From a phage: a DNA stretch of 64,000 bases. The notes below the pieces were generated by a model that did no database searches, was not told where the DNA came from, and was given only the letters and a program-made list of their open reading frames with translations. Positions 2,997 to 38,798 of the stretch are shown in pieces. The translations under genes and the position numbers were made by a program. The stretch is taken from the NCBI GenBank assembly GCA_012439925.1, contig GCA_012439925.1_4519.1; one strand, 5' to 3'. Position 1 is the stretch's first letter; every line of letters begins with the position of its first letter.

Positions 2997-4681
2997 AATC
3001 ATTTAAATTAAATCGTGTTCGTTATCAAAACATCATGTCGGTAGGTGGGAATCCTATTGATATCCAATTAGATAAAGTCCAAAAGACATTAATCACTGGT
3101 AAAAATGGCGGTGGTAAATCTACGATGTTAGAAGCCATTACTTTCGGACTTTTCGGTAAACCATTTCGTGATGTTAAGAAAGGACAAATCATTAATAGCA
3201 CGAACAAGAAAGAGCTCTTAGTTGAGCTTTGGATGGAATTCGATGATAAAAAATACTTCATTAGACGCGGCCAAAAGCCCAATATTTTCGAAATCTCCGT
3301 TGACGGTGTTCGTCTCGATGAATCTGCCAGCAGTCGTGACTTCCAAGAAGAATTTGAACGTAGCATCGGAATGTCATACGCGTCTTTTAAACAGATCGTT
3401 GTGCTTGGGACGGCAGGGTATACCCCTTTCATGGCTCTTAACACCCCTGCTCGCAGAAAGCTTGTTGAAGACTTATTAGAAGTTGGAACACTCGCTGAAA
3501 TGGATAAAATCAATAAGTCTCAAGTTCGAGAACTTAATTCCCAGGGACAAGTTCTCGATGCCAAGAAAGATGGTATTATCCAACAAATTAAGATTTATAA
3601 CGAGAATATCGAACGTCAAAAGAAATTATCTGGCGATAATGTAGCGCGTCTACAGAATATGTATGACGACCTGGCTAAAGAAGCTCGGTCATTAAAAGCA
3701 GAAATCGAAGAAGCTAATGAGCGACTACTTAATATCGTTCTTGATGAAGACCCTACTGAGGCATTCAATAAGATAGGACAAGAAGCATTCTTGATTAAAT
3801 CTAAAATTGACTCATATAACAAAGTTATTAAGATGTATCATGATGGCGGTACATGTCCTACTTGCGCATCACAGTTGCACCAGGGTGATCCTATTGTCTC
3901 TAAGATTACCGATAAGCTTCATGAATGTAATCACTCATTCGAGCAACTTACCTGCCACAGAGATAATCTGAGTGTCCTAGTGGACGAATATCGAGCTAAT
4001 GTTAAGACTAAACATGACCTTGCATCCGATATCCGTACCAAGAAACAAGCAATGATTGCCACTATTGATAAAGCTAAGAAAGTTAAAGCTGCAATAGAGC
4101 AAGCCTCGGCGGAATTTATCGACCATGCCGATGAGATAGCTTTGCTTCAAAAAGAACTTGATAAAATCATTAAAACAAAATCGGATATCGTTCTTGAAAA
4201 ATACCATCGTGGTATTATCACAGATATGTTAAAAGATTCTGGTATTAAAGGTGCTATCATTAAAAAATATGTGCCTCTGTTTAATAAGCAGATTAACCAT
4301 TATCTTAAAATCATGGAAGCTGATTACGTGTTTTCTATTGATGAAGAATTCAATGAATCTATAAAATCACGTGGCCGTGAAGATTTTAGTTATGCTTCAT
4401 TTAGTCAAGGTGAAAAAGCACGCATTGATATCGCGTTGTTGTTTACATGGCGAGATATTGCTGAAAAGGTCTCTGGTGTTAAAATCAACACTCTGATTCT
4501 TGATGAGGTTTTTGATGGGGCAGTTGATTCTGAAGCTGTTAAGGCTATAGATACCATTCTTGGAAGTTTACAAAATACTAACGTGTTCATTATTTCTCAT
4601 AGGGACCATGACCCTCAACGTTATGGACAACATTTGCAAATGAGCAAAGTTGGACGATTTACTGTAATGACTGTTTCATAA
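2993..4681 (+). CDS. 46: Recombination endonuclease subunit gp46 (Rad50/SbcC-like ATPase)
   Basis: Walker A GKNGGGKST, central CPTC zinc-hook-like motif, C-terminal LILDEVFDG; 562 aa. Confidence 0.9.
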   Translation: MKSFKLNRVRYQNIMSVGGNPIDIQLDKVQKTLITGKNGGGKSTMLEAITFGLFGKPFRDVKKGQIINSTNKKELLVELWMEFDDKKYFIRRGQKPNIFEISVDGVRLDESASSRDFQEEFERSIGMSYASFKQIVVLGTAGYTPFMALNTPARRKLVEDLLEVGTLAEMDKINKSQVRELNSQGQVLDAKKDGIIQQIKIYNENIERQKKLSGDNVARLQNMYDDLAKEARSLKAEIEEANERLLNIVLDEDPTEAFNKIGQEAFLIKSKIDSYNKVIKMYHDGGTCPTCASQLHQGDPIVSKITDKLHECNHSFEQLTCHRDNLSVLVDEYRANVKTKHDLASDIRTKKQAMIATIDKAKKVKAAIEQASAEFIDHADEIALLQKELDKIIKTKSDIVLEKYHRGIITDMLKDSGIKGAIIKKYVPLFNKQINHYLKIMEADYVFSIDEEFNESIKSRGREDFSYASFSQGEKARIDIALLFTWRDIAEKVSGVKINTLILDEVFDGAVDSEAVKAIDTILGSLQNTNVFIISHRDHDPQRYGQHLQMSKVGRFTVMTVS

Positions 4682-4723
4682 ACGCTTTAACACGATGTGG
4701 TTATAATGACCACATCAAATTAA

Positions 4724-4924
4724 ATGGAGAACAACATGGAGTATTCAACTGGACAACATCTTCTCGTTGTCCCTGAAATTAAAAAATATGTTTTGACCAA
4801 TACGTTTTCAGGTGAAGAACATATTGTTACTGAACAAATGCTCAAATCTGCTTTTAAAGATGAGTATAATAAAATAATGTCTAATCGCAATTCCGCATGG
4901 ACAGTTACCGACTTCTACGAATAA
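4724..4924 (+). CDS. Hypothetical protein
   Basis: ATG ORF between genes 46 and 45. Confidence 0.45.
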   Translation: MENNMEYSTGQHLLVVPEIKKYVLTNTFSGEEHIVTEQMLKSAFKDEYNKIMSNRNSAWTVTDFYE

Positions 4925-4936
4925 GAGAGAAATAAT

Positions 4937-5353
4937 ATGTTTACTACTGCTAAAGGTTTCACTGCTGCTGATCTGAAAGTTACTTCTATCCGTACTGACG
5001 CTAACCCACATAACCATAATCGTGTTCGTAAAGCATGGGTCCTGCATTGTGATGACGCAAGTGCTAAAAAACTCCAATCTTTGCCGCAAGAAACTCGTTT
5101 TATGATTTATGGTTTTATTGATAATGATGTGTCTGATATGTGGATTCATTTGATGCGTAAGCACTATAAAGATTCTATCGAAGCAGGTGCTAAAATCGTT
5201 CTTGATAAAGACGGTTCTGAACGCCTTGAAGATTTTTACTGTGTTGATGCCGACGAACAACTAATTGCAGCTGGCGAAATTGTTGCTTCTAAAATTCCAG
5301 AATATATTGAATCACTGCCTGAAGCTATTAAAAAGCAGATGGTTGCTGCATAA
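4937..5353 (+). CDS. rpbA: RNA polymerase-binding protein RpbA-like
   Basis: Position immediately upstream of gene 45 and remembered similarity to T4 RpbA (MFTTAKGF...). Confidence 0.5.
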   Translation: MFTTAKGFTAADLKVTSIRTDANPHNHNRVRKAWVLHCDDASAKKLQSLPQETRFMIYGFIDNDVSDMWIHLMRKHYKDSIEAGAKIVLDKDGSERLEDFYCVDADEQLIAAGEIVASKIPEYIESLPEAIKKQMVAA

Positions 5354-5395
5354 TAAATTTGTTATAAACTTTGAATTGTCTTGAAAGGAAATAAA

Positions 5396-6082
5396 ATGAA
5401 ACTGTCTAAAGATACTATCGCTATTCTGAAAAACTTTGCCTCTATTAACTCTGGCATTCTGCTGAGTCAAGGTAAATTTATTATGACTCGTGCAGTTAAT
5501 GGCACCACTTATGCGGAAGCAAATATCTCTGATGAAATTGATTTTGACGTAGCACTTTATGATTTGAATAGCTTCTTAAGCATTTTGAGTCTAGTGTCTG
5601 ATGATGCCGAAATTTCAATGCACACTGATGGCAATATTAAAATTGCAGATACACGTTCCACAGTTTATTGGCCTGCCGCTGACAAGAGCACCATTGTTTT
5701 TCCTAATAAGCCAATTCAATTCCCAGTGGCTTCTGTGATTACTGAAATTAAAGCTGAAGACCTTCAACAATTGCTTCGAGTTTCACGTGGTCTTCAGATT
5801 GATACAATTGCTATTACAAATAAAGATGGTAAAATTGTTATCAATGGCTATAATAAAGTTGAAGATTCCGGACTAACTCGTCCTAAGTATTCTTTGACTC
5901 TTACCGATTATGATGGTTCTAACAACTTTAACTTTGTAATCAATATGGCTAATATGAAAATCCAGCCAGGTAACTATAAAGTAATGTTGTGGGGAGCTGG
6001 TGATAAAGTTGCAGCTAAGTTTGAAAGCTCTCAAGTAAGTTATGTTATTGCGATGGAAGCCGATTCTACTCACGACTTCTAA
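5396..6082 (+). CDS. 45: Sliding clamp gp45
   Basis: The ORF-track start at 5381 is TTG; ATG at 5396 gives MKLSKDT..., the T4 gp45 N-terminus; 228 aa; AAGGA SD. Confidence 0.9.
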   Translation: MKLSKDTIAILKNFASINSGILLSQGKFIMTRAVNGTTYAEANISDEIDFDVALYDLNSFLSILSLVSDDAEISMHTDGNIKIADTRSTVYWPAADKSTIVFPNKPIQFPVASVITEIKAEDLQQLLRVSRGLQIDTIAITNKDGKIVINGYNKVEDSGLTRPKYSLTLTDYDGSNNFNFVINMANMKIQPGNYKVMLWGAGDKVAAKFESSQVSYVIAMEADSTHDF

Positions 6083-7121: not shown

Positions 7122-7685
7122 ATGAACTTATTTGATGATGACGTCCAGCTTAACGAGCACCAAATTGCATGGAAGTCTAATGACGCTGATGCGATTCAAA
7201 AATGTGCTGATATGTTTAAAGAAAAACCTGAGAATGAATTCTTTAAAATCATTAATGCTATTAATGAAAAGAAATCTATGTCAATTGCTCAGGTCGACTA
7301 CTCAAAATTTATGGTTGAGAACTCATTATCCCAGTTCCCAGAATGTATGCCAGCCGTTTACATGATGAACTTAGTCGGTTCTGAATTAAGTGATGAAGCG
7401 CACTTCAACTATATGATGGCGGCAATTCCACGTGGTCGTCGATTCTCTAAATGGGCTAAACTAGTCGAAGACACTTCAGAGTTACTAGTTATCAAACTGT
7501 TGATGAAACATTACACAATCAACATGAATGATGCTACCGAGTATAAGCGGCTCCTTGAAAAAAATAACAAGTTGCCAATAGTCCTTAAAGAACTGAAGGC
7601 CATGGTCACTGATGAATTTCTCAAAGAAGTTACTAAAAACGTAAAAGAACAAAAACAATTTAAAAAATTAGCATTGGAATGGTAA
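7122..7685 (+). CDS. 62: Clamp loader small subunit gp62
   Basis: Synteny (44-62-regA) and size (187 aa). Confidence 0.8.
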
Positions 7686-7687
7686 AA

Positions 7688-8056
7688 ATGATTGAAATTA
7701 AATTGAAGAACCCTGAAGATTTTCTGAAAGTCAAAGAGACTCTAACCCGTATGGGCATCGCTAATAACAAAGATAAAGTCCTTTACCAGTCTTGTCATAT
7801 CCTCCAAAAGCAAGGTAAATATTACATCGTCCACTTTAAAGAAATGTTGCGTATGGATGGGCGTCAGGTTGATATTGATGGTGAAGACTATCAGCGACGT
7901 GATTCGATTGCTCAGTTGCTTGAAGACTGGGGATTAATTGTTATTGAAGACTCTGCTCGTGAAGATCTGTTTGGCCTGACTAATAACTTCCGTGTTATCT
8001 CTTTTAAACAGAAAGATGACTGGACTTTGAAAGCAAAATATACAATTGGTAATTAA
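7688..8056 (+). CDS. regA: Translational repressor RegA
   Basis: MIEIKLKNPEDFLKVKETLTRMGIANNKDKVLYQSCHILQK matches remembered T4 RegA; start moved to the ATG at 7688. Confidence 0.85.
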   Translation: MIEIKLKNPEDFLKVKETLTRMGIANNKDKVLYQSCHILQKQGKYYIVHFKEMLRMDGRQVDIDGEDYQRRDSIAQLLEDWGLIVIEDSAREDLFGLTNNFRVISFKQKDDWTLKAKYTIGN

Positions 8057-8060
8057 AGCA

Positions 8061-8080
8061 ATGGGACTTCGGTCCCATTT
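8061..8080 (+). terminator. Stable hairpin (TGGGAC-TTCG-GTCCCA) after regA
   Basis: 6-bp GC-rich stem with UUCG loop followed by TTTGG; weak T-tract. Confidence 0.5.
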
Positions 8081-8110
8081 GGAGTATAATAAGTTCATCA
8101 ACAAACAAAA

Positions 8111-8137
8111 GACAATAACTCGTCTAAAGGAAATTAA
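8111..8137 (+). promoter_or_regulatory. Putative gp43 translational operator (small hairpin with AAUAACUC loop + SD)
   Basis: GAC-AATAACTC-GTC immediately upstream of the SD AAGG and the gene 43 ATG; the loop sequence matches what I recall of the T4 gene 43 autoregulatory operator. Confidence 0.45.
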
Positions 8138-10849
8138 ATGAAAGAATTTTACTTAACGGTTGAACAGATTGGTGATTCAATTTTTGAACGTTACATCGAT
8201 TCTAATGGCCGTGAACGTACTCGTGAAGTAGAATATAAACCATCACTGTTTGCTCATTGTCCAGAAAGTCAGGCTACGAAATATTTCGATATCTATGGTA
8301 AGCCGTGTACTCGTAAGTTGTTCGCTAATATGCGTGATGCCTCCCAATGGATTAAACGCATGGAAGATATCGGACTTGAAGCACTTGGCATGGACGATTT
8401 CAAATTGGCGTATTTGTCTGACACTTATAACTATGAAATCAAATACGACCATACAAAAATTCGTGTGGCTAACTTCGACATCGAAGTAACATCTCCGGAT
8501 GGGTTCCCTGAGCCGTCACAAGCAAAACATCCGATTGATGCTATCACCCATTATGACTCAATTGACGACAGGTTCTACGTATTTGATCTATTGAATTCTC
8601 CATATGGTAATGTAGAAGAATGGTCTATTGAAATCGCTGCTAAGCTTCAAGAACAAGGTGGTGATGAAGTTCCATCTGAAATTATCGATAAAATCATTTA
8701 TATGCCGTTCGATAACGAAAAAGAATTGTTGATGGAATATCTCAACTTCTGGCAACAGAAAACTCCTGTCATTTTGACTGGATGGAACGTCGAGTCATTT
8801 GATATTCCATATGTGTATAACCGAATCAAGAATATTTTTGGTGAATCTACTGCGAAACGTTTATCACCACATCGTAAAACTCGTGTTAAAGTTATCGAAA
8901 ACATGTATGGTTCTCGTGAAATCATTACATTGTTCGGTATCTCGGTTCTTGATTACATTGACCTTTACAAAAAATTCTCTTTCACAAACCAACCGTCGTA
9001 TTCTTTGGATTACATTTCAGAATTTGAATTGAATGTTGGTAAACTGAAATATGACGGCCCTATTTCTAAGCTTCGTGAAAGCAATCACCAACGATATATT
9101 TCTTATAACATTATCGACGTGTATCGTGTATTGCAAATTGATGCTAAGCGTCAGTTCATCAACTTGAGTTTGGACATGGGTTATTATGCTAAGATACAGA
9201 TTCAATCTGTGTTTAGCCCAATTAAAACATGGGATGCTATTATTTTTAATAGCCTTAAAGAGCAGAACAAGGTGATTCCACAAGGTCGTTCTCACCCGGT
9301 TCAACCTTATCCTGGCGCTTTTGTTAAGGAACCTATTCCAAATCGATACAAATATGTAATGAGTTTCGACCTTACATCTCTGTATCCAAGTATTATTCGC
9401 CAAGTGAATATTAGCCCGGAAACAATAGCAGGAACGTTTAAAGTAGCTCCATTGCATGATTATATTAACGCAATCGCTGAACGTCCTTCAGATGTGTACA
9501 GTTGTTCTCCTAACGGCATGATGTATTATAAAGATCGTGATGGTGTAGTTCCAACTGAAATCACTAAGGTCTTTAATCAACGTAAAGAACATAAAGGTTA
9601 CATGCTTGCAGCTCAACGTAACGGTGAAATAATTAAAGAGGCATTGCATAATCCTAATCTTTCTGTTGACGAACCATTAGATGTTGATTATCGTTTCGAC
9701 TTCAGTGATGAGATTAAAGAAAAGATTAAAAAGTTGTCTGCTAAATCTCTTAATGAAATGTTGTTTAGAGCTCAACGTACTGAAGTTGCAGGTATGACTG
9801 CACAAATTAACCGTAAATTGCTTATCAACTCACTTTATGGTGCACTTGGCAACGTCTGGTTCCGTTATTATGATTTGCGTAATGCTACTGCAATCACAAC
9901 ATTCGGACAAATGGCTTTACAGTGGATTGAACGTAAAGTTAATGAATATCTGAATGAAGTTTGTGGTACAGAAGGTGAAGCTTTCGTTCTATATGGTGAT
10001 ACAGACTCCATTTATGTATCTGCAGATAAAATTATTGATAAGGTTGGTGAATCTAAATTCCGTGATACCAACCATTGGGTAGACTTCTTAGATAAGTTTG
10101 CACGTGAACGTATGGAACCTGCTATTGATAGAGGTTTCCGTGAAATGTGTGAATACATGAACAATAAACAACACTTAATGTTCATGGACCGAGAAGCTAT
10201 CGCTGGTCCTCCGCTCGGTTCTAAAGGTATTGGTGGATTCTGGACTGGTAAGAAACGTTATGCATTAAACGTGTGGGATATGGAAGGAACCAGATACGCT
10301 GAGCCTAAACTCAAAATCATGGGTCTCGAAACACAGAAATCTTCGACCCCTAAAGCAGTACAGAAAGCTCTTAAAGAATGTATTCGTCGTATGCTTCAAG
10401 AAGGTGAAGAATCATTACAAGAATATTTTAAAGAGTTTGAAAAAGAATTCCGTCAATTGGATTATATTAGCATCGCGTCGGTATCTTCTGCGAATAACAT
10501 TGCTAAATATGACGTTGGTGGATTCCCTGGCCCTAAATGTCCGTTCCATATTCGTGGAATTCTGACGTATAACCGGGCTATCAAAGGTAATATTGATGCT
10601 CCACAAGTTGTAGAAGGTGAAAAAGTATATGTTCTGCCTTTACGTGAAGGAAACCCATTCGGTGATAAATGTATCGCATGGCCTTCTGGTACTGAAATCA
10701 CAGATTTAATTAAAGACGACGTACTTCATTGGATGGACTACACTGTTCTCCTTGAGAAGACATTTATTAAACCACTTGAAGGATTCACATCAGCAGCGAA
10801 ACTCGATTACGAGAAGAAAGCATCTCTGTTCGATATGTTCGATTTTTGA
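8138..10849 (+). CDS. 43: DNA polymerase gp43 (family B)
   Basis: Exo motif FDIE, pol motifs LYPS and YGDTDS; 903 aa; the N-terminus MKEFYLTVEQIGDSIFERYIDSNGRERTRE is recognisably the RB69 polymerase. Confidence 0.95.
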   Translation: MKEFYLTVEQIGDSIFERYIDSNGRERTREVEYKPSLFAHCPESQATKYFDIYGKPCTRKLFANMRDASQWIKRMEDIGLEALGMDDFKLAYLSDTYNYEIKYDHTKIRVANFDIEVTSPDGFPEPSQAKHPIDAITHYDSIDDRFYVFDLLNSPYGNVEEWSIEIAAKLQEQGGDEVPSEIIDKIIYMPFDNEKELLMEYLNFWQQKTPVILTGWNVESFDIPYVYNRIKNIFGESTAKRLSPHRKTRVKVIENMYGSREIITLFGISVLDYIDLYKKFSFTNQPSYSLDYISEFELNVGKLKYDGPISKLRESNHQRYISYNIIDVYRVLQIDAKRQFINLSLDMGYYAKIQIQSVFSPIKTWDAIIFNSLKEQNKVIPQGRSHPVQPYPGAFVKEPIPNRYKYVMSFDLTSLYPSIIRQVNISPETIAGTFKVAPLHDYINAIAERPSDVYSCSPNGMMYYKDRDGVVPTEITKVFNQRKEHKGYMLAAQRNGEIIKEALHNPNLSVDEPLDVDYRFDFSDEIKEKIKKLSAKSLNEMLFRAQRTEVAGMTAQINRKLLINSLYGALGNVWFRYYDLRNATAITTFGQMALQWIERKVNEYLNEVCGTEGEAFVLYGDTDSIYVSADKIIDKVGESKFRDTNHWVDFLDKFARERMEPAIDRGFREMCEYMNNKQHLMFMDREAIAGPPLGSKGIGGFWTGKKRYALNVWDMEGTRYAEPKLKIMGLETQKSSTPKAVQKALKECIRRMLQEGEESLQEYFKEFEKEFRQLDYISIASVSSANNIAKYDVGGFPGPKCPFHIRGILTYNRAIKGNIDAPQVVEGEKVYVLPLREGNPFGDKCIAWPSGTEITDLIKDDVLHWMDYTVLLEKTFIKPLEGFTSAAKLDYEKKASLFDMFDF

Positions 10850-10889: not shown

Positions 10890-11525
10890 ATGAAAACTAC
10901 TCCTATTACTATCGCTATTGACGCAATCATAAAACAAGCTTCTTCTTTGGCCGCTATGGCCAAAGTAATTAGTCAAAACTCTGCCCGATATAATGCTATT
11001 CTTGAAACTCTTCGTCGCCCTGGACTGAGTAATTATGAAAGCCGAGTAATTATTACAGGTGTTGGTAAGAACGCTAATATCGCAACTAAAGCTTCTGAGA
11101 CATTTGCTTCACTCGGTATCCCAAGTATGTACTTGAACACCGGGCATTATTCTCACGGTGATGCAGGATTCATTGCGCCTAATGATGTGTTGATTCATAT
11201 TAGTCGTTCTGGTAAGACTGAAGAAATGATAGGCGTGGCTAAGCATCTTAAAATGATTCGTCCTCAGGTTAAACAGATTCTGTTACATTGTAACCCTGAC
11301 ATTCCGCAAGAATACGAAGCTCTTTTTGATTATACGTTCTGTACCGGCATCGCGGTAGAGGTTGATGAGAATTCTCTGGCTCCTACAATGTCCACTACAT
11401 TGTTGTTAGCGCTTATCGATACGTTCGCTATCAACCTTTCGTCTGAACGCGGATTTACCTCTAATGACTTCCTTAAGTTCCATCCAGGCGGTGCACTAGG
11501 TGCCATGTTACGAGGCGAACAATGA
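10890..11525 (+). CDS. SIS-domain sugar-phosphate isomerase (arabinose-5-phosphate isomerase KdsD/GutQ-like, no CBS domains)
   Basis: SIS signatures VIITGVGKNANIATKASETFASLG, HGDAGFIAPNDVLIHISRSGKTEE and APTMSTT align with the KdsD/KpsF N-terminal domain. Confidence 0.8.
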   Translation: MKTTPITIAIDAIIKQASSLAAMAKVISQNSARYNAILETLRRPGLSNYESRVIITGVGKNANIATKASETFASLGIPSMYLNTGHYSHGDAGFIAPNDVLIHISRSGKTEEMIGVAKHLKMIRPQVKQILLHCNPDIPQEYEALFDYTFCTGIAVEVDENSLAPTMSTTLLLALIDTFAINLSSERGFTSNDFLKFHPGGALGAMLRGEQ

Positions 11526-11665
11526 AAGCAATAACAATAGGACTTTTACTATTGATGCTTGCCATGACTATCTACTGGAGCTTAACGGCTCCAGTAATGA
11601 TTCCGACTCTTATAATCGGATGGATTATGATTGGACTACAAGCAAAGTATGAATGCTTTAACTAG
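11522..11665 (+). CDS. Small hydrophobic peptide (47 aa, predicted membrane)
   Basis: ATGA overlap with the isomerase stop; MKAITIGLLLLMLAMTIYW...; below the ORF-track cutoff. Confidence 0.3.
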   Translation: MKAITIGLLLLMLAMTIYWSLTAPVMIPTLIIGWIMIGLQAKYECFN

Positions 11666-11678
11666 AATAGTGTACAAT
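11652..11678 (+). promoter_or_regulatory. MotA-box middle promoter candidate
   Basis: TGCTTTA, 12-nt spacer, TACAAT upstream of the 11707 gene. Confidence 0.4.
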
Positions 11679-11706
11679 ACACCTACTTACCAATGAGGAC
11701 CACAAC

Positions 11707-13392
11707 ATGAAAAAAGCTGTTATTCTTGGTGCTGGACTGGCAACTCGTTTGTATCCAATAACGCACCATATTCCTAAGGTGCTTGTTAACTATAAACAAG
11801 ACACTATTCTGAGCAATTTGTATACAATTTATTCTGACCTTGGTGCAGATGAAATTATTGTAGTAGTTCATTCAAAATTTGTTGAAACTGTTCGAGCTTA
11901 TTGTGAGCAAGAAGGGTTCAATGTGACTATTCGTACAGTTGATGAAGCGTATGGTTCTGCTTATGCTCTTGCTAAATTATACAAAGATTTAGATGGCCAT
12001 AACGTAATTGTTAACTGGTGTGATATTATTCCTGATTTTGGTTCATGGTCTTGGAATGTTAACGCAATCTATGTTAAGGGTGATGAATGTCGATATAATT
12101 TCGATGGTGAAAATATCACTAACGTAGGTTCAACAGGCGGTAATGTTGTAGGAATTTATCAGTTCAAAGACTGGGAATTCTACATGGGTTCTACTGATGA
12201 GGAAATTCACGAATACTGCAAAGGACGTGATTTCGTAGAATTCCTTTACGGCAGTGCATTCAATAAATCAGAGCTTATGAATCTAATTGATTTAGGTGAT
12301 ATGCCTAAACTTGAAAAGGCTCATGAAGTTCGTGAACTGAATCGTAGTTTTAATGCAGTTGAAATTGGCGAAGAAACTGTAACTAAATTCGCGTTAACCG
12401 AACAAGGTCGAGCTCTTCAAAAAGATGAGATTTCATGGTATTTGAAAGTGAAATCAGATTCAGTTCCTCAGTTAGTTTCGGTAAATGAAAATAATTTTGA
12501 AATGGAACGCATTAAAGGTAAGCCAGCATTTGAATATATTAAATCCAAATCAAGTCTTGCTCGTCCACAAATTGTTGATGCAATTTTAGATGCACTGAAA
12601 TTCAGCACAGACACTTATTTTGTAAGTCCTGAAACTGTTCGTCGTGATTTCACTAAAGAATTCTATACGAAAGTTATTGATCGTTGTGAAAGCATTCAAC
12701 CATTGATTGATTCATTTGGTAAAATCACACATGTGAACTACACTAAGATTGGACGGCTGAAGCCAATGCTGAAACAAGCTTTAGAACACCTTATTCGTTA
12801 TCATAACCGTTCTCAGGGACAGTACTCTGTTATTCACGGTGACCCAAACTTCAGTAATACTATGATTACTGATAACGGCGAAGTCAAGTTTATCGACCCT
12901 CGTGGATATTTTGGTGAAACCAAGATTTACGGGCCAAAATTGTATGATGAAGCTAAAGTGCTTTATGCTGTTTCAGGTTATGATGAATTCAACGCTAATC
13001 CGACCTGGGGCCAGTTTACTATTGATGAAACAACTTGTAATGTGACTATTAACATCAATCCATTAGTTTACAAATATGGAAAGATGAGTTCGTTTAACGA
13101 GTATCATCATTTGGCAGTGGCAATTATCTGGATTGCATTAGGTGGTTATTTCAAGAATAATCCACTTAAAGCGGTAGCCGCATATTATAAAGGTATGGAA
13201 CTTCTAACTAAGCAATTACGTAACATGGGCCGTGTACTTCAAGACGGCTCTATTAGTTATGACGTAGCAGAACCTGTAACGGCTACTCTGATTACAAAAA
13301 ATCCTGGTAAATGGGTACTAACTGATAAAGAAACTGGTGTTTCCTATCGTCCAATCGGTGGCGATATCACTCATCAATGGGAACGAATCTAA
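11707..13392 (+). CDS. Bifunctional sugar-1-phosphate nucleotidyltransferase / anomeric sugar kinase (MurU-AmgK-like fusion)
   Basis: N-terminal MKKAVILGAGLATRLYPIT is the sugar nucleotidyltransferase G-x-G-x-R-L motif; C-terminal HGDPNFSNTMI ... KFIDPRG are the Brenner (HxDxxxxN) and DFG-like motifs of APH/choline-kinase-fold kinases. Confidence 0.75.
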   Translation: MKKAVILGAGLATRLYPITHHIPKVLVNYKQDTILSNLYTIYSDLGADEIIVVVHSKFVETVRAYCEQEGFNVTIRTVDEAYGSAYALAKLYKDLDGHNVIVNWCDIIPDFGSWSWNVNAIYVKGDECRYNFDGENITNVGSTGGNVVGIYQFKDWEFYMGSTDEEIHEYCKGRDFVEFLYGSAFNKSELMNLIDLGDMPKLEKAHEVRELNRSFNAVEIGEETVTKFALTEQGRALQKDEISWYLKVKSDSVPQLVSVNENNFEMERIKGKPAFEYIKSKSSLARPQIVDAILDALKFSTDTYFVSPETVRRDFTKEFYTKVIDRCESIQPLIDSFGKITHVNYTKIGRLKPMLKQALEHLIRYHNRSQGQYSVIHGDPNFSNTMITDNGEVKFIDPRGYFGETKIYGPKLYDEAKVLYAVSGYDEFNANPTWGQFTIDETTCNVTININPLVYKYGKMSSFNEYHHLAVAIIWIALGGYFKNNPLKAVAAYYKGMELLTKQLRNMGRVLQDGSISYDVAEPVTATLITKNPGKWVLTDKETGVSYRPIGGDITHQWERI

Positions 13393-13778
13393 TGCACCGT
13401 GTAGAAAACATGCTTAATCTTTGTTTTGATGTCGATGATTGTATAACAGAGTGGAATAACAATCGTGATTACGTGAACTTCAAACCAGACGTAGAAATGG
13501 TGACCGCCATTAATGCCCTGTATGATGCAGGGCATACCATAACGCTTTACACTGCTCGCGGTATGAAGTCAGTAGGTCCTGGACGTATAGCAATTGACAT
13601 TCTCCCAAGTCTGATTCAGAACTTGGCAAACATTGGCTTGAAGTACCATAATTTGCTAACACATAAACCAGTATATGATTGGATTATCGACGACAAAGCT
13701 ATGCGTCCTGACGAATTCAAAGCTCTTATGAATAAAGGCGAATTCGAAACATTTAAATCGTATAAACCGAATCTATAA
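13392..13778 (+). CDS. HAD-like phosphatase
   Basis: N-terminal LCFDVDDCIT (HAD motif I-like), TLYTARG, WIIDDK (motif IV-like); TAATG overlap with the upstream gene. An alternative ATG at 13377 exists. Confidence 0.55.
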   Translation: MHRVENMLNLCFDVDDCITEWNNNRDYVNFKPDVEMVTAINALYDAGHTITLYTARGMKSVGPGRIAIDILPSLIQNLANIGLKYHNLLTHKPVYDWIIDDKAMRPDEFKALMNKGEFETFKSYKPNL

Positions 13779-13835
13779 TAATTTAAGTAAGACCTGCAAA
13801 AAACCATCGCATCAATTAACGTGAGATGCAAAAAA

Positions 13836-14996
13836 ATGAATACTTTTAAAATCGGAACGAATTTTGATTTAGCTCTTCTTGATAAAATCGTAGAGCTCAA
13901 TAAAACTTATCCTAATAGCTTGATAAACGAAGTATATGGCTCTACAAGAGAAATGGCTTTTGTAGCAGCCAGACCTGATTTTAGGCTTCCTGACGTTGAC
14001 AAAAAGATGTTAGAAGACTACGTTAAACGTTGTAACGAATTAGGTATTTGCTTTAACTATACACTCAACACGATAAATCCTGGTTCAAAAAGAGAACTAG
14101 TTGAGTGGAAGAAGAAAGCTATTCAGGATTATGTTCAGTATCTTTGGTCAATAGGCGTATGGCGTATTACTATCGCTAACCCTGTTGTTATGGAAATTGT
14201 TCGTGAAGTCAATAAAGATATTGAGATTGAAGTTTCAACAATTCTACATGTTGATGCTGTAACTCAAATCAAATACTTGCATGACCAATATAACATCAAA
14301 AAGGTCTGTTGCGGAATTCATAAGAACCGTTCAGTTTCTTTCCTGAAGCGTGCAGCAGAGTTTTGCAATAAGAACAATATAATATTTGAAGTTCTTGTAA
14401 ATGAGTTCTGTTCTAATGCTGGTAAAGGGTATACAACACATTGTAGCTATCGTGACTCTTGCTATATTTTCCATAGTACTGATGTTACCGCTGATGATGC
14501 TAAATCCTTAAATGGATATCCTATGCAGCACTGTATTAAAGCTCGTGATACAGACCCATTTAACTGGCTGAGAACTCGTTTTGTTCGTCCTCAAGATTTG
14601 AAACTTTATAATGATATTGGTATCACTCAATTCAAAGTTTCAGGACGTACAGGTAGCACAGACTACATTTTGAAAGTTCTTGAAGCATACGCTTCTGAAA
14701 AGTTTGAAGGTAATTTGTTAGAACTGTGGAAGCCTTTAGAGACTATTTTCACTCTTGAAAATGAGACTGAGTTTTCACATACAGTAAATATTGAAACCTC
14801 TTTGTTAGATGGCTTTTTAGAAAAAAGGTGGTTCAGACATCCAGATTTTGATTGTGCTAATGAAATCTGTGGGTCAACGTGTACATATTGTGAAAGGTAT
14901 TATAAACGTCAATTATCTAAAAACGGGTTAGCAGAAAACTCCATATCTATTATTGATATAACTAACTCTGATGACGCTTTGAGGTACCCGGAATGA
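13836..14996 (+). CDS. U32-family protein (peptidase U32 / RlhA-TrhP-UbiU-like fold)
   Basis: Blockwise correspondence with U32 proteins (RPDFRLP ... GICFNYTLNTIN ... NPVVMEIVRE ... EVSTILHVDA ... FEVLVNEFCS) plus a C-terminal Cys cluster CANEICGSTCTYC. The ORF-track start at 13821 is GTG; the first ATG is 13836. Confidence 0.6.
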   Translation: MNTFKIGTNFDLALLDKIVELNKTYPNSLINEVYGSTREMAFVAARPDFRLPDVDKKMLEDYVKRCNELGICFNYTLNTINPGSKRELVEWKKKAIQDYVQYLWSIGVWRITIANPVVMEIVREVNKDIEIEVSTILHVDAVTQIKYLHDQYNIKKVCCGIHKNRSVSFLKRAAEFCNKNNIIFEVLVNEFCSNAGKGYTTHCSYRDSCYIFHSTDVTADDAKSLNGYPMQHCIKARDTDPFNWLRTRFVRPQDLKLYNDIGITQFKVSGRTGSTDYILKVLEAYASEKFEGNLLELWKPLETIFTLENETEFSHTVNIETSLLDGFLEKRWFRHPDFDCANEICGSTCTYCERYYKRQLSKNGLAENSISIIDITNSDDALRYPE

Positions 14997-15232
14997 TTTC
15001 TAGAAAAAGTTTTAATTATAAACTTAACGAAGAGATTTTGACTATGAAACTGAACACTAACGAACAAATTCTTAAAAAGGCCCTTATGGGCCTGTTTGAA
15101 ACCAAAGCGGCTAAAGTGATTAAAGAACCTGTTCAATTGGAATACTACACTGATGCATTCCTTCATAGTGTTCTTGGAAGTATAGATTCTGAAGCTTTAC
15201 GGTATATCAACACTGCCAAGAAATTCAAATAA
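14993..15232 (+). CDS. Hypothetical protein
   Basis: ATGA overlap with the U32 gene; GAGG SD. Confidence 0.45.
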   Translation: MISRKSFNYKLNEEILTMKLNTNEQILKKALMGLFETKAAKVIKEPVQLEYYTDAFLHSVLGSIDSEALRYINTAKKFK

Positions 15233-15274: not shown

Positions 15275-15991
15275 ATGGGAAAACATAACACAATGAAATA
15301 TATCAAAGCCGCAGATTTTCAAACCGCATTTAAAGCAGTCAATCGTGAAATTTTAGAAAACCCGGAATTCGTAACTGATTCTCGTATTGGACGTTGTAAT
15401 GAAATTGGGTCTATGACAGTAGTTGTTGACACTCCATCATCATTCAAAATGACCGACCCACGTATTAACCGCATCTCTTATGAATATGCCGAAGACTTCT
15501 GGAAGTTTATGATTTCTGGTGGTACCAACGCAGAAGAAGCGTTTAAGGCATATCCTAATGTCGCTAAATTTATTTCTAAACCAAAATCAGATGTTTTGCC
15601 GGCGAACTTCAACACTTTCTATGGTCCTCGCATTGCGGCCCAATTACCAACTCTTCTAAAAGAACTTAAAGAAAAACCTAACTCTCGAAGAGTTGTGTTC
15701 CAAATTCTAGAAAGTTCTGATCAGGCTTTGCTTGATTCGGACGAAACACTTGAATATCCATGTACTGACTCAGTAACTTATTATATTCGTGATGGTAAGC
15801 TTTATACCCACTGTCATATGCGTTCTCAGAACTGTGCTGTTGTTATGCAGTTGGATTTTTATCTCCAAGGAAAATTACTTCATTATATCGCTAACGAATG
15901 CGGTGTAGAAGTTGGTGATTATACTCATACCATGGTAAGTGCCCATGTGTTTGAACGTGATTTTGATTATGTTAAAGGATTCCTTGACTAA
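15275..15991 (+). CDS. 42: dCMP hydroxymethylase gp42 (thymidylate-synthase fold)
   Basis: TS-superfamily core PCTDSVTYYIRDGKLYTHCHMRSQNCAVVMQLDFYLQ (catalytic Cys and the RS(Q/N) block); 238 aa; located between 43 and uvsX as in T4. Confidence 0.7.
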   Translation: MGKHNTMKYIKAADFQTAFKAVNREILENPEFVTDSRIGRCNEIGSMTVVVDTPSSFKMTDPRINRISYEYAEDFWKFMISGGTNAEEAFKAYPNVAKFISKPKSDVLPANFNTFYGPRIAAQLPTLLKELKEKPNSRRVVFQILESSDQALLDSDETLEYPCTDSVTYYIRDGKLYTHCHMRSQNCAVVMQLDFYLQGKLLHYIANECGVEVGDYTHTMVSAHVFERDFDYVKGFLD

Positions 15992-16890
15992 TGGCTATTT
16001 TCCGCGTACCTATCTTGAGTATGCGGTCTTATGAAACTGGACAGTATGCTATCCTTAAGGATGGCAACTTCCAACTTCATTTGCACCGTGCTAATCCGGG
16101 TGATGCGATTACATATCCACGTAATGCATCTGATATTAAAGAATGCGAACGTCTTTTCCCAGAATTTAAGTTTGTTCCATTATGGTATAAAGATAACGCG
16201 TATAACACTCGTAAATATTTCTGGACTGAAAATGAATTTGTAGTTGATTCATTAATTGATTATTATGATTGTGATTTTCTAATCACAGATATCACCGGTT
16301 ATGGCGGCGCTTTTGATGTGGAATTCAATTTCAATATCACTGCAGACCCTAATAAACCACGCTTTTATATTGATGAATTCTTAAAAACCGATATGTTGTC
16401 AGTTAATCGTTCACTTCAAACTACTGTGTTGAATGAACGTCAAAAGGAAGTGCTGGTTAACGCAGGTGCAGATGGTAATAAGATTATTGTAACGCAGAAA
16501 GTTATACGTCCTTCCATCATGCAGCGTCTTGTAGGTGATTTGGCTCCTATTCATCTAGATGGTATTTTTCATCCATTTCGAATTAGTGACCCATGTTATC
16601 GTTTTGAACAAGTGGTTGAATGTGCAATTCAATTAGGTCAACCGCTTTATATAACTGATCCAAATAATAGCTTTGACAGAAATAAGTATCCTGAAGAAGC
16701 GCTGATTCGAATTTTTAAACCAACTAAAACTGAGTACTATCAAATTCTTAAAGGACGTCCGAAGATTCAATATTTCGAAAATCCTGAAGAAGTATTCCAT
16801 CCAGGTCTTGGTGAGTTCATCTACTTTAATGCTTTAATTTCTTCACCGTATAATATACCTAAATACGAAGATGTCGTAATCGAGGAATAA
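15991..16890 (+). CDS. Hypothetical protein (299 aa) at the beta-gt locus
   Basis: TAATG overlap with gene 42; occupies the position of beta-glucosyltransferase in T4 but has no similarity to it that I can see. Confidence 0.6.
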   Translation: MAIFRVPILSMRSYETGQYAILKDGNFQLHLHRANPGDAITYPRNASDIKECERLFPEFKFVPLWYKDNAYNTRKYFWTENEFVVDSLIDYYDCDFLITDITGYGGAFDVEFNFNITADPNKPRFYIDEFLKTDMLSVNRSLQTTVLNERQKEVLVNAGADGNKIIVTQKVIRPSIMQRLVGDLAPIHLDGIFHPFRISDPCYRFEQVVECAIQLGQPLYITDPNNSFDRNKYPEEALIRIFKPTKTEYYQILKGRPKIQYFENPEEVFHPGLGEFIYFNALISSPYNIPKYEDVVIEE

Positions 16891-16891
16891 A

Positions 16892-17440
16892 ATGGCTAAA
16901 ATTATTTTAGTAGACGGCCCAGATAATGCTGGTAAAACAACTTTCATTAATGACATAATGGAAATTAGTGAAAGATATGTAAAGATTGATTTCCCTAAAC
17001 GAACAGTTGATGGACGTTTCGATGTTAAGTCTCGAAATGAAGTTGGTTGTTTCGAAACGATGTTGAATTATTTAGACCCTACTAAGATTTATCTGTTAGA
17101 CCGTGGATATATTAGTAACTGGGTTTATGGACGTATTCGACAAGATGCGGACTCGGTTCTTGACGTTTATGAACAGGACTATGTTCGTCTTTGCCAAAAC
17201 CATGATGTGTTCACAATTATTTTAACACGTAACGAAATGACTGAAAGTTTTGAAGACGACCTTATTACTTTGTCTTCATTCGGTTTTAATACAGTCATTT
17301 CACATTTTGAAGAGTTTGCAATTCATAACAAAATCCAAACGTATCAATTACTTAATCATGATGGTTCTAACAAAGTTATAGGATTTAATGCAAGCGAACG
17401 TAATAATTTGATTACAGAAATCATCAAATGGGCTCGTTAA
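16892..17440 (+). CDS. Thymidylate-kinase-like P-loop nucleotide kinase
   Basis: P-loop IILVDGPDNAGKTT and LLDRGYISNWVYG resembling the TMPK DR(Y/H)xxSxxAY motif. Confidence 0.5.
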   Translation: MAKIILVDGPDNAGKTTFINDIMEISERYVKIDFPKRTVDGRFDVKSRNEVGCFETMLNYLDPTKIYLLDRGYISNWVYGRIRQDADSVLDVYEQDYVRLCQNHDVFTIILTRNEMTESFEDDLITLSSFGFNTVISHFEEFAIHNKIQTYQLLNHDGSNKVIGFNASERNNLITEIIKWAR

Positions 17441-22225: not shown

Positions 22226-22474
22226 ATGGAATTATTCGTAGCTAGTTCAGTAGCAGTTTTAATCGCAGGTATTGGTTCAATCATCATTTACATGTTGCCT
22301 TGGGTAATCGCACTTATTCGTGGCACAAAAAGCACAACAGCAATCTTCTTTGTATCTTTACTCTTTAACTGGACGATGATTGGTTGGATTGGAACTTTAA
22401 TTTGGTCTATCGTTGCCGAAAAGAAATCTGCTCAGCAGCCTCAACAAGTAATTATTATTCGCGAAAAAGAATAA
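22226..22474 (+). CDS. Small two-TM membrane protein (Imm-like superinfection-immunity candidate)
   Basis: Two hydrophobic helices separated by RGTKSTT; 82 aa. Confidence 0.5.
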   Translation: MELFVASSVAVLIAGIGSIIIYMLPWVIALIRGTKSTTAIFFVSLLFNWTMIGWIGTLIWSIVAEKKSAQQPQQVIIIREKE

Positions 22475-37697: not shown

Positions 37698-38798
37698 ATG
37701 AAAGTTATGTTTATCCCATCTCGCGCAGTCCCATTTAACCCAGAACGTGTACAAGGTGGTCTTGAAGCAGTACATTTAAATGTGTTGAAATATCTTGTGT
37801 CCATCGGTGCTGATATTGATTATATCGGCTTTGATAATGACACATTTGGTGATTGGAAGGTTAATCATCATCCTGTTGGTCATCTGACTAAATTCAGTCT
37901 AGGTATGAGTTATACTATGGCTCGTAAGATTGTTGAACTAGCCGGCATTAATGAGTACGATTTCGTTGTTACAATGGAACCGACCAAACTAACCGTTCAG
38001 GCAATTAAAGACGCAGGTCTTTCTAAAGTTCATAAGAATTTTATGGCAACACCATTTGAACCAGTATCTCGTGGCATTGTTCAAATTTGGGACCAGACTA
38101 TTCAAATTCATAAGAACGGTGGTAAGAGTTATGCTCCTACTAAAGCCTTCCGTGAATTTGAACGTAAATATTGTTATATGACTTCAGGTCTGACTGACAA
38201 AATTGATTATGATTATTGGCGAGCAAATCCGTTGTTTGAAGCCGAAGATTATCCGGTTATTTGTTTGAATGAGAAACCTGAAGTTCTTCCGGCGACTGAT
38301 CTGATTATTAGTGCACAACGTTATGACACTAAAATGCGTCGTACTGATGTTGCTCTTGAAGCGATTAAAGCACTAGGCGAAAATGGTATTGGTTATTGTC
38401 CTAGTAAATGGGCACCACCGGCTAAGTATCCTGTTATTATTGATGCTCCACACGGTGAAATCATGGAACGTCTTAAAACAGCTAAAGCACTTATCAATAC
38501 GTGTCCTGACACGGGTACGGTAGAGAATAGTTCTATTGAAGCCATCTCTAAAGGTGTCCCTGTAATTCAGTTAGTTTTTAAGGATTATCCTCATGCGACA
38601 TTCGAATACGACCCAGATACTGTGCGTGTAGAAATTGATTCCTCTACTCCTAAGAAAGAAGTAGTTGCGCTTTACACAAAAGCTGTATTAGAATTCACTG
38701 ACACATACGAAGCTCGAGTTAAACGTGCTGAAGCAGTATGGAAGAAGTATAACCGAGATGCAGTTGTTGCGATGTGGGATAAAATCTTCACAGCGTAA
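37698..38798 (+). CDS. GT-B-fold glycosyltransferase (candidate DNA sugar transferase)
   Basis: N-terminal MKVMFIPSRAVPF ... GG.E and C-terminal TGTVENSSIEAISKGVPVIQ resemble GT4-type donor-binding motifs; T4 has no such gene between 39 and rIIA. Confidence 0.6.
   Translation: MKVMFIPSRAVPFNPERVQGGLEAVHLNVLKYLVSIGADIDYIGFDNDTFGDWKVNHHPVGHLTKFSLGMSYTMARKIVELAGINEYDFVVTMEPTKLTVQAIKDAGLSKVHKNFMATPFEPVSRGIVQIWDQTIQIHKNGGKSYAPTKAFREFERKYCYMTSGLTDKIDYDYWRANPLFEAEDYPVICLNEKPEVLPATDLIISAQRYDTKMRRTDVALEAIKALGENGIGYCPSKWAPPAKYPVIIDAPHGEIMERLKTAKALINTCPDTGTVENSSIEAISKGVPVIQLVFKDYPHATFEYDPDTVRVEIDSSTPKKEVVALYTKAVLEFTDTYEARVKRAEAVWKKYNRDAVVAMWDKIFTA

Follow-up and report, generated by a model that had tools for sequence, protein, structure and literature searches.

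A U32-family protein in the arabinose module of an RB69-like phage as a candidate oxygen-independent source of 5-hydroxycytosine

The DNA of phage RB69 was found in 2018 to contain arabinose, the base being named arabinosyl-5-hydroxymethylcytosine (ara-hmC), and a module of genes was suggested at the same time as the likely source of UDP-arabinose (Thomas et al. 2018, PMC6024577). The nucleoside has since been revised to beta-D-Araf-(1-3)-alpha-D-Araf-5-hydroxy-2'-deoxycytidine (Lee et al. 2026, PMC13326640); nuclear magnetic resonance (NMR) and LC-MS, liquid chromatography coupled to mass spectrometry, put the arabinose directly on the C5 oxygen, the base being arabinofuranosyl-5-hydroxycytosine with the sugar ether-linked to C5 (PMC13326640), and Mosigvirus NP has the same bases (PMC13390438). 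In the virion DNA of these two phages 5-hydroxy-deoxycytidine with one or two arabinofuranosyl residues takes the place of dC. The subject here is the corresponding module in a 64,000-nucleotide stretch of phage DNA (contig GCA_012439925.1_4519.1 of assembly GCA_012439925.1, hereafter the window), which lies at positions 10890 to 14996, and in particular the gene within it that encodes a protein of the U32 family. An earlier note, made from the letters of the window without database searches, had described this region as a candidate pathway for arabinosylated 5-hydroxymethylcytosine (hmC).

The module proposed for UDP-arabinose synthesis in 2018 was worked out in 2025-26. RB69 gp48 together with a deoxynucleoside monophosphate (dNMP) kinase yields 5-hydroxy-deoxycytidine (5-hydroxy-dC) in E. 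coli, 18O is incorporated from 18O2 and a flavin resembling flavin mononucleotide (FMN) is bound (Lee et al. 2026, PMC13326640). The same paper proposes that the SIS-domain protein converts ribulose-5-P to arabinose-5-P (Ara5P), that gp46:47 is the first (alpha) arabinosyltransferase on 5-hydroxycytosine, and that gp3, assigned to the GT-B glycosyltransferases both there and in PMC6024577, is the beta-arabinosyltransferase adding the second arabinose; Table 1 gives a structural match of gp45 to thymidylate kinases, and RB69 is stated to be without both alpha-gt and beta-gt. Its passages on HY126 describe AfhE as phosphorylating Ara5P to arabinose-1,5-bisphosphate (Ara-1,5-P2) and also making UDP-arabinofuranose (UDP-Araf), and AfhF as taking the 5-phosphate off Ara-1,5-P2 to give arabinose-1-P (Ara-1-P).

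The U32 protein of RB69, gp50, has been given different names, being a 'sugar or heterocycle reductase' in a table of PMC13326640 and a 'peptidase' elsewhere, and the 'epimerase' of PMC13390438 is probably this protein too. Characterised members of the family are prephenate-dependent, namely RlhA (23S rRNA ho5C2501), TrhP (tRNA ho5U34) and UbiU/UbiV (ubiquinone precursors); TrhP and UbiU/V act without O2, and for UbiUV the oxygen has been shown to come from prephenate. Lee et al. (PMC13326640) cite hydroxylation by RlhA/TrhP only as not using ThyA homologs, and the membership of gp50 in the U32 family goes unmentioned. Full-text searches, which did not cover He et al. 2026 and Mahler et al. 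2025, gave no paper in which phage DNA modification is connected with U32, prephenate or chorismate mutase.

Set against these systems, the region is likely to be that half of the Mosigvirus system for hypermodifying DNA with arabinofuranosyl-5-hydroxycytosine which provides the sugar donor. The U32 protein is graded separately; its sequence and neighbourhood suggest that it may be a [4Fe-4S], prephenate-dependent, O2-independent pyrimidine C5-hydroxylase, a tentative reading that we would accept about as readily as doubt. The features concerned are as follows.

8138-10849, DNA polymerase (gene 43)
10890-11525, + strand, homolog of D-arabinose-5-phosphate isomerases with the SIS domain only (RB69 gp55), from Pfam, NCBIfam and PDB sequence matches
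11522-11665, + strand, small hydrophobic open reading frame (ORF) of 47 aa, read directly from the sequence
11707-13392, + strand, predicted bifunctional nucleotidyltransferase and kinase of 561 aa (RB69 ORF53_52c, AfhE-like), from domain matches and motifs
13392-13778, + strand, predicted HAD-type Mg-dependent phosphatase (RB69 gp51, AfhF-like), from 9IQW, TIGR01689 and motifs
13836-14996 (alternative GTG start 13821), + strand, predicted U32-family Fe-S protein of 386 aa (RB69 gp50), from Peptidase_U32
14993-15232, + strand, ORF of 79 aa (RB69 ORF049c), ATGA-coupled to the U32 gene
15275-15991, + strand, predicted 5-hydroxy-dCMP synthase of thymidylate-synthase fold (RB69 gp48), from identity to gp48 and D169N
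15991-16890, + strand, GT-B-fold glycosyltransferase GT1 of 299 aa (RB69 gp46:47), from the fold match of an AlphaFold2 (AF2) model
16892-17440, + strand, thymidylate-kinase-like nucleotide kinase (RB69 gp45), from a weak dTMP-kinase match
22226-22474, imm homolog, 65% identical to T4 imm over 84 aa
37698-38798, + strand, second glycosyltransferase (RB69 ORF003c/gp3), 98.6% identical to RB69 gp3 over 366 aa

The best DNA match of the 4.4-kb stretch is CCU7 (98.3%), 155 phage genomes match it at 95-99% DNA identity, the gene order is as in RB69 gp45-gp55 and the window proteins are 97-100% identical to their RB69 counterparts; going by these matches the window is another Mosigvirus isolate, RB69-like. 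The ORF list gives the SIS, nucleotidyltransferase/kinase, HAD and U32 genes at the positions that the earlier note had for them, and its placing of the region as a nucleotide-sugar (arabinose) module for hypermodification of DNA cytosine holds.

The base is another matter. The protein at 15275-15991, which had been called a dCMP hydroxymethylase, is 99% identical to RB69 gp48 and only 26% identical to T4 gp42, it matches PDB 9IQC/9IR2/9IQU (E 2.9e-160), and it has D169N, N177D and L143E (E. coli ThyA numbering), T4 gp42 retaining D169. From these residues and matches it is an FMN- and O2-dependent 5-hydroxy-dCMP synthase, not a dCMP hydroxymethylase, and the arabinosylated hmC that the note named for RB69 is to be replaced by arabinofuranosyl-5-hydroxycytosine (PMC13326640, PMC13390438). 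Its remark that the enzymology of the module was not established is likewise out of date, near-identical proteins having been solved (9IQC, 9IQU, 9IQW).

The sugar enzymes were assigned to the right families by the earlier note, and the absence of significant family matches that it had set as a refutation was not observed. For the SIS protein, 98% identical to RB69 gp55, there are matches to Pfam SIS (2.6e-10), to KpsF/GutQ and KdsD of NCBIfam (1.9e-32 and 6.9e-31), and, among PDB sequences, to the single-domain phosphosugar isomerases 3etn (1e-24) and 5uqi (6e-23) and to KdsD 2xhz (6.8e-19). The bifunctional enzyme, 99.6% identical to its RB69 counterpart, matches NTP_transferase over residues 3-99 (3.7e-9) and NCBIfam sugar-1-P nucleotidyltransferases (2.7e-13) at its N-terminus; its APH/choline-kinase-like C-terminal half has only weak kinase-family matches (residues 308-409) together with HGDPNFSN at 377 and DPRG at 397. 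The HAD protein, without a match in the Pfam search, is identical at 127/128 residues to the solved structure 9IQW (E 4.4e-87), and matches 1xpj (6.3e-10) and the capsule biosynthesis phosphatase family TIGR01689 of NCBIfam (4e-13), with motif I DVDDC at residue 13 and also IIDDK. As 9IQW starts MHRVENM, which corresponds to window position 13392, the start at 13377 in the ORF list is probably too early.

Two genes that are split in the RB69 reference record (L019), the bifunctional enzyme into ORF053c/052c (4373-6059) and the first glycosyltransferase into ORF047c/046c (8656-9556), are single ORFs in the window (561 and 299 aa), consistent with sequencing errors reported in the literature. 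In Klebsiella phage kv_tblp2 (L020, 4733-7504) and in four further loci (L029, L033, L034, L040) the bifunctional enzyme, HAD, U32, chorismate mutase and ThyA homolog are present, the SIS isomerase is absent and a thymidylate-kinase-like gene lies immediately upstream of U32; these phages presumably obtain arabinose-5-phosphate via host KdsD or GutQ.

The transferases were also placed differently by the note, which had the hmC glycosylated by the product of 37698-38798. That protein has no match in the Pfam search, and its identity to gp3 bears out its standing as a glycosyltransferase candidate; following PMC13326640 it would be the enzyme of the second arabinose, and the first transferase is probably the adjacent GT1 at 15991-16890. 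The AF2 model of GT1 (predicted local distance difference test score, pLDDT, 93.5) is matched by Foldseek to MshA 3c4q, sucrose-phosphate synthase 6kih and UDP-GlcNAc 2-epimerases, so that in the model a GT-B fold is confirmed for a protein with no match in Pfam or NCBIfam searches; in distant phage contigs a GT1 homolog is encoded immediately upstream of U32. The thymidylate-kinase-like protein has a weak dTMP-kinase match (0.0039), and its gene adjoins U32 in Klebsiella, Thanatos and metagenomic loci. In the 64-kb window, which is about one third of the genome, no homolog of T4 beta-gt is found, and this much of the statement that alpha-gt and beta-gt are both missing stands; alpha-gt was not searched for.

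Put together, the SIS isomerase would convert ribulose-5-P to D-arabinose-5-P, a step suggested by homology and by the published proposal, the kinase domain at the C-terminus of the bifunctional enzyme would then form arabinose-1,5-bisphosphate, the HAD phosphatase would take off the 5-phosphate to leave arabinose-1-P, and the N-terminal domain of the bifunctional enzyme would make UDP-arabinofuranose. The adjacent thymidylate-synthase homolog would use FMN and O2 to make 5-hydroxy-dCMP, and the adjacent GT-B enzyme followed by the gp3 homolog would add the first and second arabinose, again as homology and published proposals suggest. The second to fifth of these steps rest on reports for near-identical HY126 or RB69 proteins.

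The pathway of the earlier note, in which SIS, HAD, an anomeric kinase and the nucleotidyltransferase lead by way of free arabinose to NDP-arabinose, and 37698-38798 transfers the sugar to hmC made by a gp42-type dCMP hydroxymethylase, is compatible on paper with the domain content, and it can draw on the 2018 report of ara-hmC in RB69 (PMC6024577) and on legacy labels retained in Table 1 of PMC13326640, such as 'dephosphorylates Araf5p to Ara'. It is nonetheless very improbable, being already contradicted by the published nucleoside structure, in which NMR and LC-MS show 5-hydroxycytosine, and by a ThyA homolog that has D169N and is 99% identical to a proven maker of 5-hydroxy-dCMP. Moreover, the passages on HY126 in PMC13326640 have AfhE acting on Ara5P and AfhF on Ara-1,5-P2, the kinase thus preceding the HAD enzyme with no free arabinose in the order they give, and the proposed first transferase is the adjacent GT-B gene. 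The earlier interpretation is thus partly supported and largely superseded by publications of 2018-2026, and the arabinose module as such is already known.

The U32 protein matches the Pfam family Peptidase_U32 at 7.4e-11, above the gathering score, and has no PDB sequence match even at E = 1; its AF2 model (pLDDT 90.3) has the U32 protein 5d88 as best solved fold match, the others being generic TIM barrels. C203/C209/C233, the counterparts of UbiU C169/C176/C193 in the alignment, are invariant in 31 family members, C203/C209 also align with the essential C169/C176 of RlhA, and the nearly invariant E185 aligns with RlhA E161, which is essential as well. C158, C177, C192 and a C-terminal CX4CX3CX2C are likewise invariant in the 31 members. 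This C-terminal motif, C-ANEI-C-GST-C-TY-C at residues 340-352 (window 14851-14894), is found in 31/31 aligned members and in none of the E. coli proteins UbiU, UbiV, RlhA and TrhP; the spacing of its last three cysteines, CxxxCx(aromatic)C, is that of radical-SAM clusters, and the motif may be a binding site for a second cluster or for zinc.

Between the phage of the window and phages of Enterobacter, Serratia, Klebsiella, Yersinia and Shewanella the U32 protein is 79-87% identical, which makes it the most conserved protein of the module; in the same comparison the ThyA homolog is 71-82%, DNA polymerase (gp43) 65-80%, the bifunctional enzyme 43-72% and GT1 48-69% identical. Recent horizontal transfer is unlikely to be the source of this conservation, as the flanking genes diverge normally and conservation at the protein level spans all the genera.

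In 51 phage genomes from at least 12 host genera the gene that separates U32 from the ThyA homolog encodes a true AroQ chorismate mutase, with matches to Pfam CM_2 (1.7e-11 and 2.4e-10) and with the residues R11, R28, K39, E52, S84 and Q88 of the E. coli chorismate mutase EcCM invariant, and in Shewanella phage Thanatos-2 U32 and chorismate mutase lie together at a different spot in the cluster. Most of the related genera have a chorismate mutase of their own. There is no chorismate mutase anywhere in the 64-kb window, and Mosigviruses presumably draw prephenate from host PheA and TyrA.

More distant U32 relatives, of ~360 aa and about 40-58% identical, are found on viral contigs, and the family does not occur in 50,697 sequenced phage genomes except in the T4-like set. 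Neighbourhoods were counted in 25 IMG/VR loci with a distant U32, 40-55% identical, and flanks of up to 10 kb. A GT1-family gene is near U32 in 16 of these, an AfhE-like gene in 10 and SIS in eight, and in five, or six distant loci by another count, DAHP (3-deoxy-D-arabino-heptulosonate 7-phosphate) synthase and/or chorismate mutase is beside U32. One locus (L056) reads GT1, SIS, AfhE-like, thymidylate-kinase-like, a fusion of DAHP synthase and chorismate mutase, HAD and U32, the fusion (7302-8357) matching DAHP_synth_1 at 2.5e-36 and CM_2 at 7.9e-18; another (L008) reads GT1, SIS, AfhE-like, U32 and DAHP synthase (2.6e-70, against 2.9e-17 for KDO8P synthase). At other distant loci GT1 and U32 are accompanied by a TAGT-type transferase, UDP-galactopyranose mutase (GLF), dCMP deaminase, dUTPase or thymidylate-kinase-like genes. 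A ThyA homolog of the D169N (5-hydroxy-dCMP-synthase) type is near U32 in none of the 25 within 10 kb, the sole ThyA among them (L044) retaining D169 and N177.

Some further features of these contigs may be recorded. The fusion of a chorismate mutase to the C-terminus of a type-I-beta DAHP synthase, which places two steps of the shikimate pathway in one viral gene beside U32, occurs in L053, L054 and L057 as well as in L056. A radical-SAM/SPASM gene (~342 aa) lies repeatedly just upstream of the GT1-U32 pair in phage contigs of PolIII-alpha type (L011 to L015 and L003/L004, for example L012, 4980-6011, and L014, 4972-6000), its best weak matches being maturases (such as a tungsten-cofactor radical SAM maturase, PqqE and MoaA), and in L004 such a gene is also followed by a second U32 paralog, very divergent at 22% identity, which recalls the UbiU/UbiV pair.

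Arabinosylation genes therefore occur with the ThyA-type hydroxylase alone, with U32 and chorismate mutase alone, or with both, as would be expected if the two were alternative sources of the same hydroxylated base. The linkage to chorismate mutase and DAHP synthase fits the need of the U32 family for prephenate and has no obvious place in pentose chemistry. As the ThyA-type enzyme needs O2, a partner independent of it would matter for coliphages of the gut, and U32 would supply 5-hydroxy-deoxycytidylate when O2 is lacking, the pair paralleling TrhP/TrhO in tRNA ho5U formation and UbiUV/UbiIHF in ubiquinone synthesis. By extension it is possible, if rather open to doubt, that Mosigviruses have two routes to 5-hydroxycytosine, one with flavin and O2 through the ThyA homolog and one with Fe-S and prephenate through U32, and that other phages use U32 alone, with a DAHP synthase-chorismate mutase of their own, to make the attachment point for DNA glycosylation.

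Several points weigh against a hydroxylase. The U32 protein has no cysteine at the fourth canonical position of the cluster (UbiU C232; CX3-4C after C233), for which C158, C177, C192 or the C-terminal CX4CX3CX2C could provide a replacement ligand, and in vitro hydroxylation has yet to be demonstrated for any U32 protein. In air U32 is not needed, since gp48 and a dNMP kinase alone give 5-hydroxy-dC in E. coli; in the metagenomic contigs a ThyA-type enzyme could sit more than 10 kb away; and U32 co-occurs with sugar genes too, so that neighbourhood alone cannot exclude a role on the sugar side. E. coli Dhakaviruses such as Bp7 have the module without U32, which makes U32 dispensable for some phages of facultative anaerobes. 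The absence of U32 from phages of the strict aerobe Acinetobacter (57 records with the bifunctional enzyme) speaks, on the other hand, for a hydroxylase, and with Bp7 in view a clean rule of aerobic and anaerobic hosts holds only in part.

The role on the sugar side just mentioned, in which U32 would be a reductase, epimerase or similar enzyme shaping the arabinose donor, is the reading implied by the published labels 'sugar or heterocycle reductase' (PMC13326640) and 'epimerase' (PMC13390438). The gene does lie inside a sugar cluster, SIS and AfhE-like genes accompany it in 8-10 of the 25 distant loci, and the TIM-barrel fold is common to many sugar enzymes. We regard this role as unlikely, because Acinetobacter phages such as DLP3 make arabinofuranosyl-5-hydroxycytosine without U32, and because U32 pairs with GT1 where the arabinose genes are absent and GLF and TAGT are present instead; in addition the linkage to chorismate mutase and DAHP synthase would be without rationale, and three of the four Fe-S cysteines of the hydroxylase member UbiU are retained.

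That U32 instead hydroxylates host or phage RNA (tRNA U34 or rRNA C2501, as TrhP and RlhA do) and so tunes translation, its position in the cluster being incidental, would agree with RNAs being the only nucleic-acid substrates known for the family, and T4-like phages carry tRNA genes and RNA-modifying functions. Against this, the protein is only 18-21% identical to the E. coli paralogs and, at 386 aa to the 653 of RlhA and 453 of TrhP, it is without their C-terminal domains (DUF3656 in RlhA), and the loci examined hold dNMP kinases, dCMP deaminase, dUTPase, deoxynucleotidases, DNA polymerase and DNA-type glycosyltransferases, which makes an RNA substrate improbable. Finally, a collagenase-like peptidase, the reading of GenBank/RefSeq records that say 'peptidase' or 'putative protease' and one for which two U32 proteins reported as collagenolytic may be cited, is scarcely credible for a family without a known catalytic mechanism for proteolysis whose genetically characterised members are all hydroxylation factors, and it would leave the chorismate mutase linkage and the nucleotide-metabolism neighbourhoods unexplained.

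Returning to the layout of the module, six closely packed genes lie on the + strand between DNA polymerase and the thymidylate-synthase homolog. The overlaps that the earlier note had read as translational coupling are present in the sequence, as caATGAaag at 11522, TAATG at 13390-13394 (the overlap at 13392) and ggaATGAtt at 14993. The ATGA at 11522 opens an ORF that the note had omitted, and gaps of 42-58 nt separate the 47-aa ORF from the nucleotidyltransferase gene and HAD from U32, which shows that not all junctions of the module are coupled. Scans for promoters and terminators and counts of T4 late-promoter motifs gave nothing above chance in the region. A sigma-70-like match (TTTAAA, 16 nt, TATAAT) at 13752-13779, in the 3' end of the HAD gene and just upstream of U32, is the only one on the + strand near a gene start; such matches are rarer in the region than in shuffled sequence, and at most it hints that U32 has a promoter of its own. 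In T4 the slot between genes 43 and 42 holds imm.1 as well as the imm that had been named as its only content. An imm homolog is found in the window ~7 kb downstream of the module (22226-22474), which indicates that the superinfection-immunity gene has been moved and not lost.

The omitted ORF, MKAITIGLLLLMLAMTIYWSLTAPVMIPTLIIGWIMIGLQAKYECFN, starts with an ATG that overlaps the SIS stop codon, and has counterparts at the same position in other phages (96% identical in RB69; 60-66% in Entb_45, LC53 and T4-like loci of IMG/VR), that of LC53 carrying a transmembrane-segment annotation; in Dhakavirus Bp7 a 62% match to it lies directly after imm. Between HAD and U32 a seg-type homing endonuclease gene is found in Serratia phage LC53 (L001, 5352-5990) and in Yersinia phiR1-RT (L021, 6852-7490), which marks this junction as a recombination-prone spot and may help to account for the spread of the cassette of U32 and chorismate mutase.

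For the 79-aa ORF that follows U32 there is no match in Pfam or NCBIfam. Its being a diverged chorismate mutase was considered and is rejected: hhalign against the phage chorismate-mutase profile gives a probability of 0.14%, a CM_2 match together with the active-site residues is not found, and in Yersinia phiR1-RT and Serratia 92A1 a homolog of it is present besides a distinct chorismate mutase gene, the order there being U32, the homolog, chorismate mutase and the ThyA homolog, with an overlap at every junction. In Serratia LC53 the N-terminus of the 79-aa ORF is apparently fused to chorismate mutase (MRRINHTMNELV in LC53, MKINHKLNEELV in the Yersinia protein). It is 82-98% conserved within Mosigvirus, far more variable than U32, with truncated variants of 47-58 aa, and is possibly an accessory of U32 or a decaying gene.

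For the arabinose module the value of these results is mainly one of correct annotation, with three corrections, to the base, to the order of steps and to the first transferase. U32 is of interest because O2 is required by the 5-hydroxy-dCMP synthase known so far, although these coliphages, which destroy dCTP, spend most of their lives in the anoxic gut; if the hydroxylase reading is true, an O2-independent route would explain how the phages replicate there. U32 would then be the first enzyme of its family to act on a DNA precursor, and through it the shikimate pathway would for the first time be tied to phage DNA hypermodification. The poorly understood chemistry of U32 and prephenate would also gain a substrate, small and soluble, that suits the in vitro assay still missing from the field. 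Many uncultivated phages with U32 and a GT1-type transferase would also be flagged as likely carriers of glycosylated hydroxypyrimidine DNA, which is relevant to restriction evasion, sequencing artefacts and phage therapy.

Compared with the arabinofuranosyl-5-hydroxycytosine pathway of RB69 (gp45-gp55 and gp3) and HY126 (Afh proteins) the locus has the same genes in the same order, and there is no substantive difference. With the glucosyl-hmC system of T4 (gp42, gp56 dCTPase, gp1, alpha-gt and beta-gt) it shares the genomic slot, from gene 43 to uvsX, and a logic in which an enzyme of thymidylate-synthase fold acts on dCMP, a dCTPase removes dCTP and glycosyltransferases follow. Here, however, the base is 5-hydroxy and not 5-hydroxymethyl, the cofactor is flavin with O2 and not folate, and the sugar is arabinofuranose from a donor made by the phage itself, with no beta-gt homolog in the window. 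Activation via a 1,n-bisphosphate that is trimmed by a small HAD enzyme is shared with GmhB (heptose-1,7-bisphosphate), and the pairing of a nucleotidyltransferase with an APH-fold kinase is shared with AmgK/MurU, whilst here a single 561-aa protein combines the two as a fusion, with a pentofuranose phosphate as substrate. The phage U32 protein has the U32 domain in common with RlhA, TrhP, UbiU and UbiV, with cysteines that align with three of the four Fe-S ligands of UbiU and with the essential pair of RlhA, and the proposed product would be the same mark that RlhA makes, a hydroxyl at cytosine C5. It differs from them in its low identity (18-21%), in having no RNA-binding or DUF3656 domain, in the replaced fourth cysteine and the added C-terminal CX4CX3CX2C, and in a presumed deoxynucleotide substrate, and it forms a separate, apparently virus-borne subfamily.

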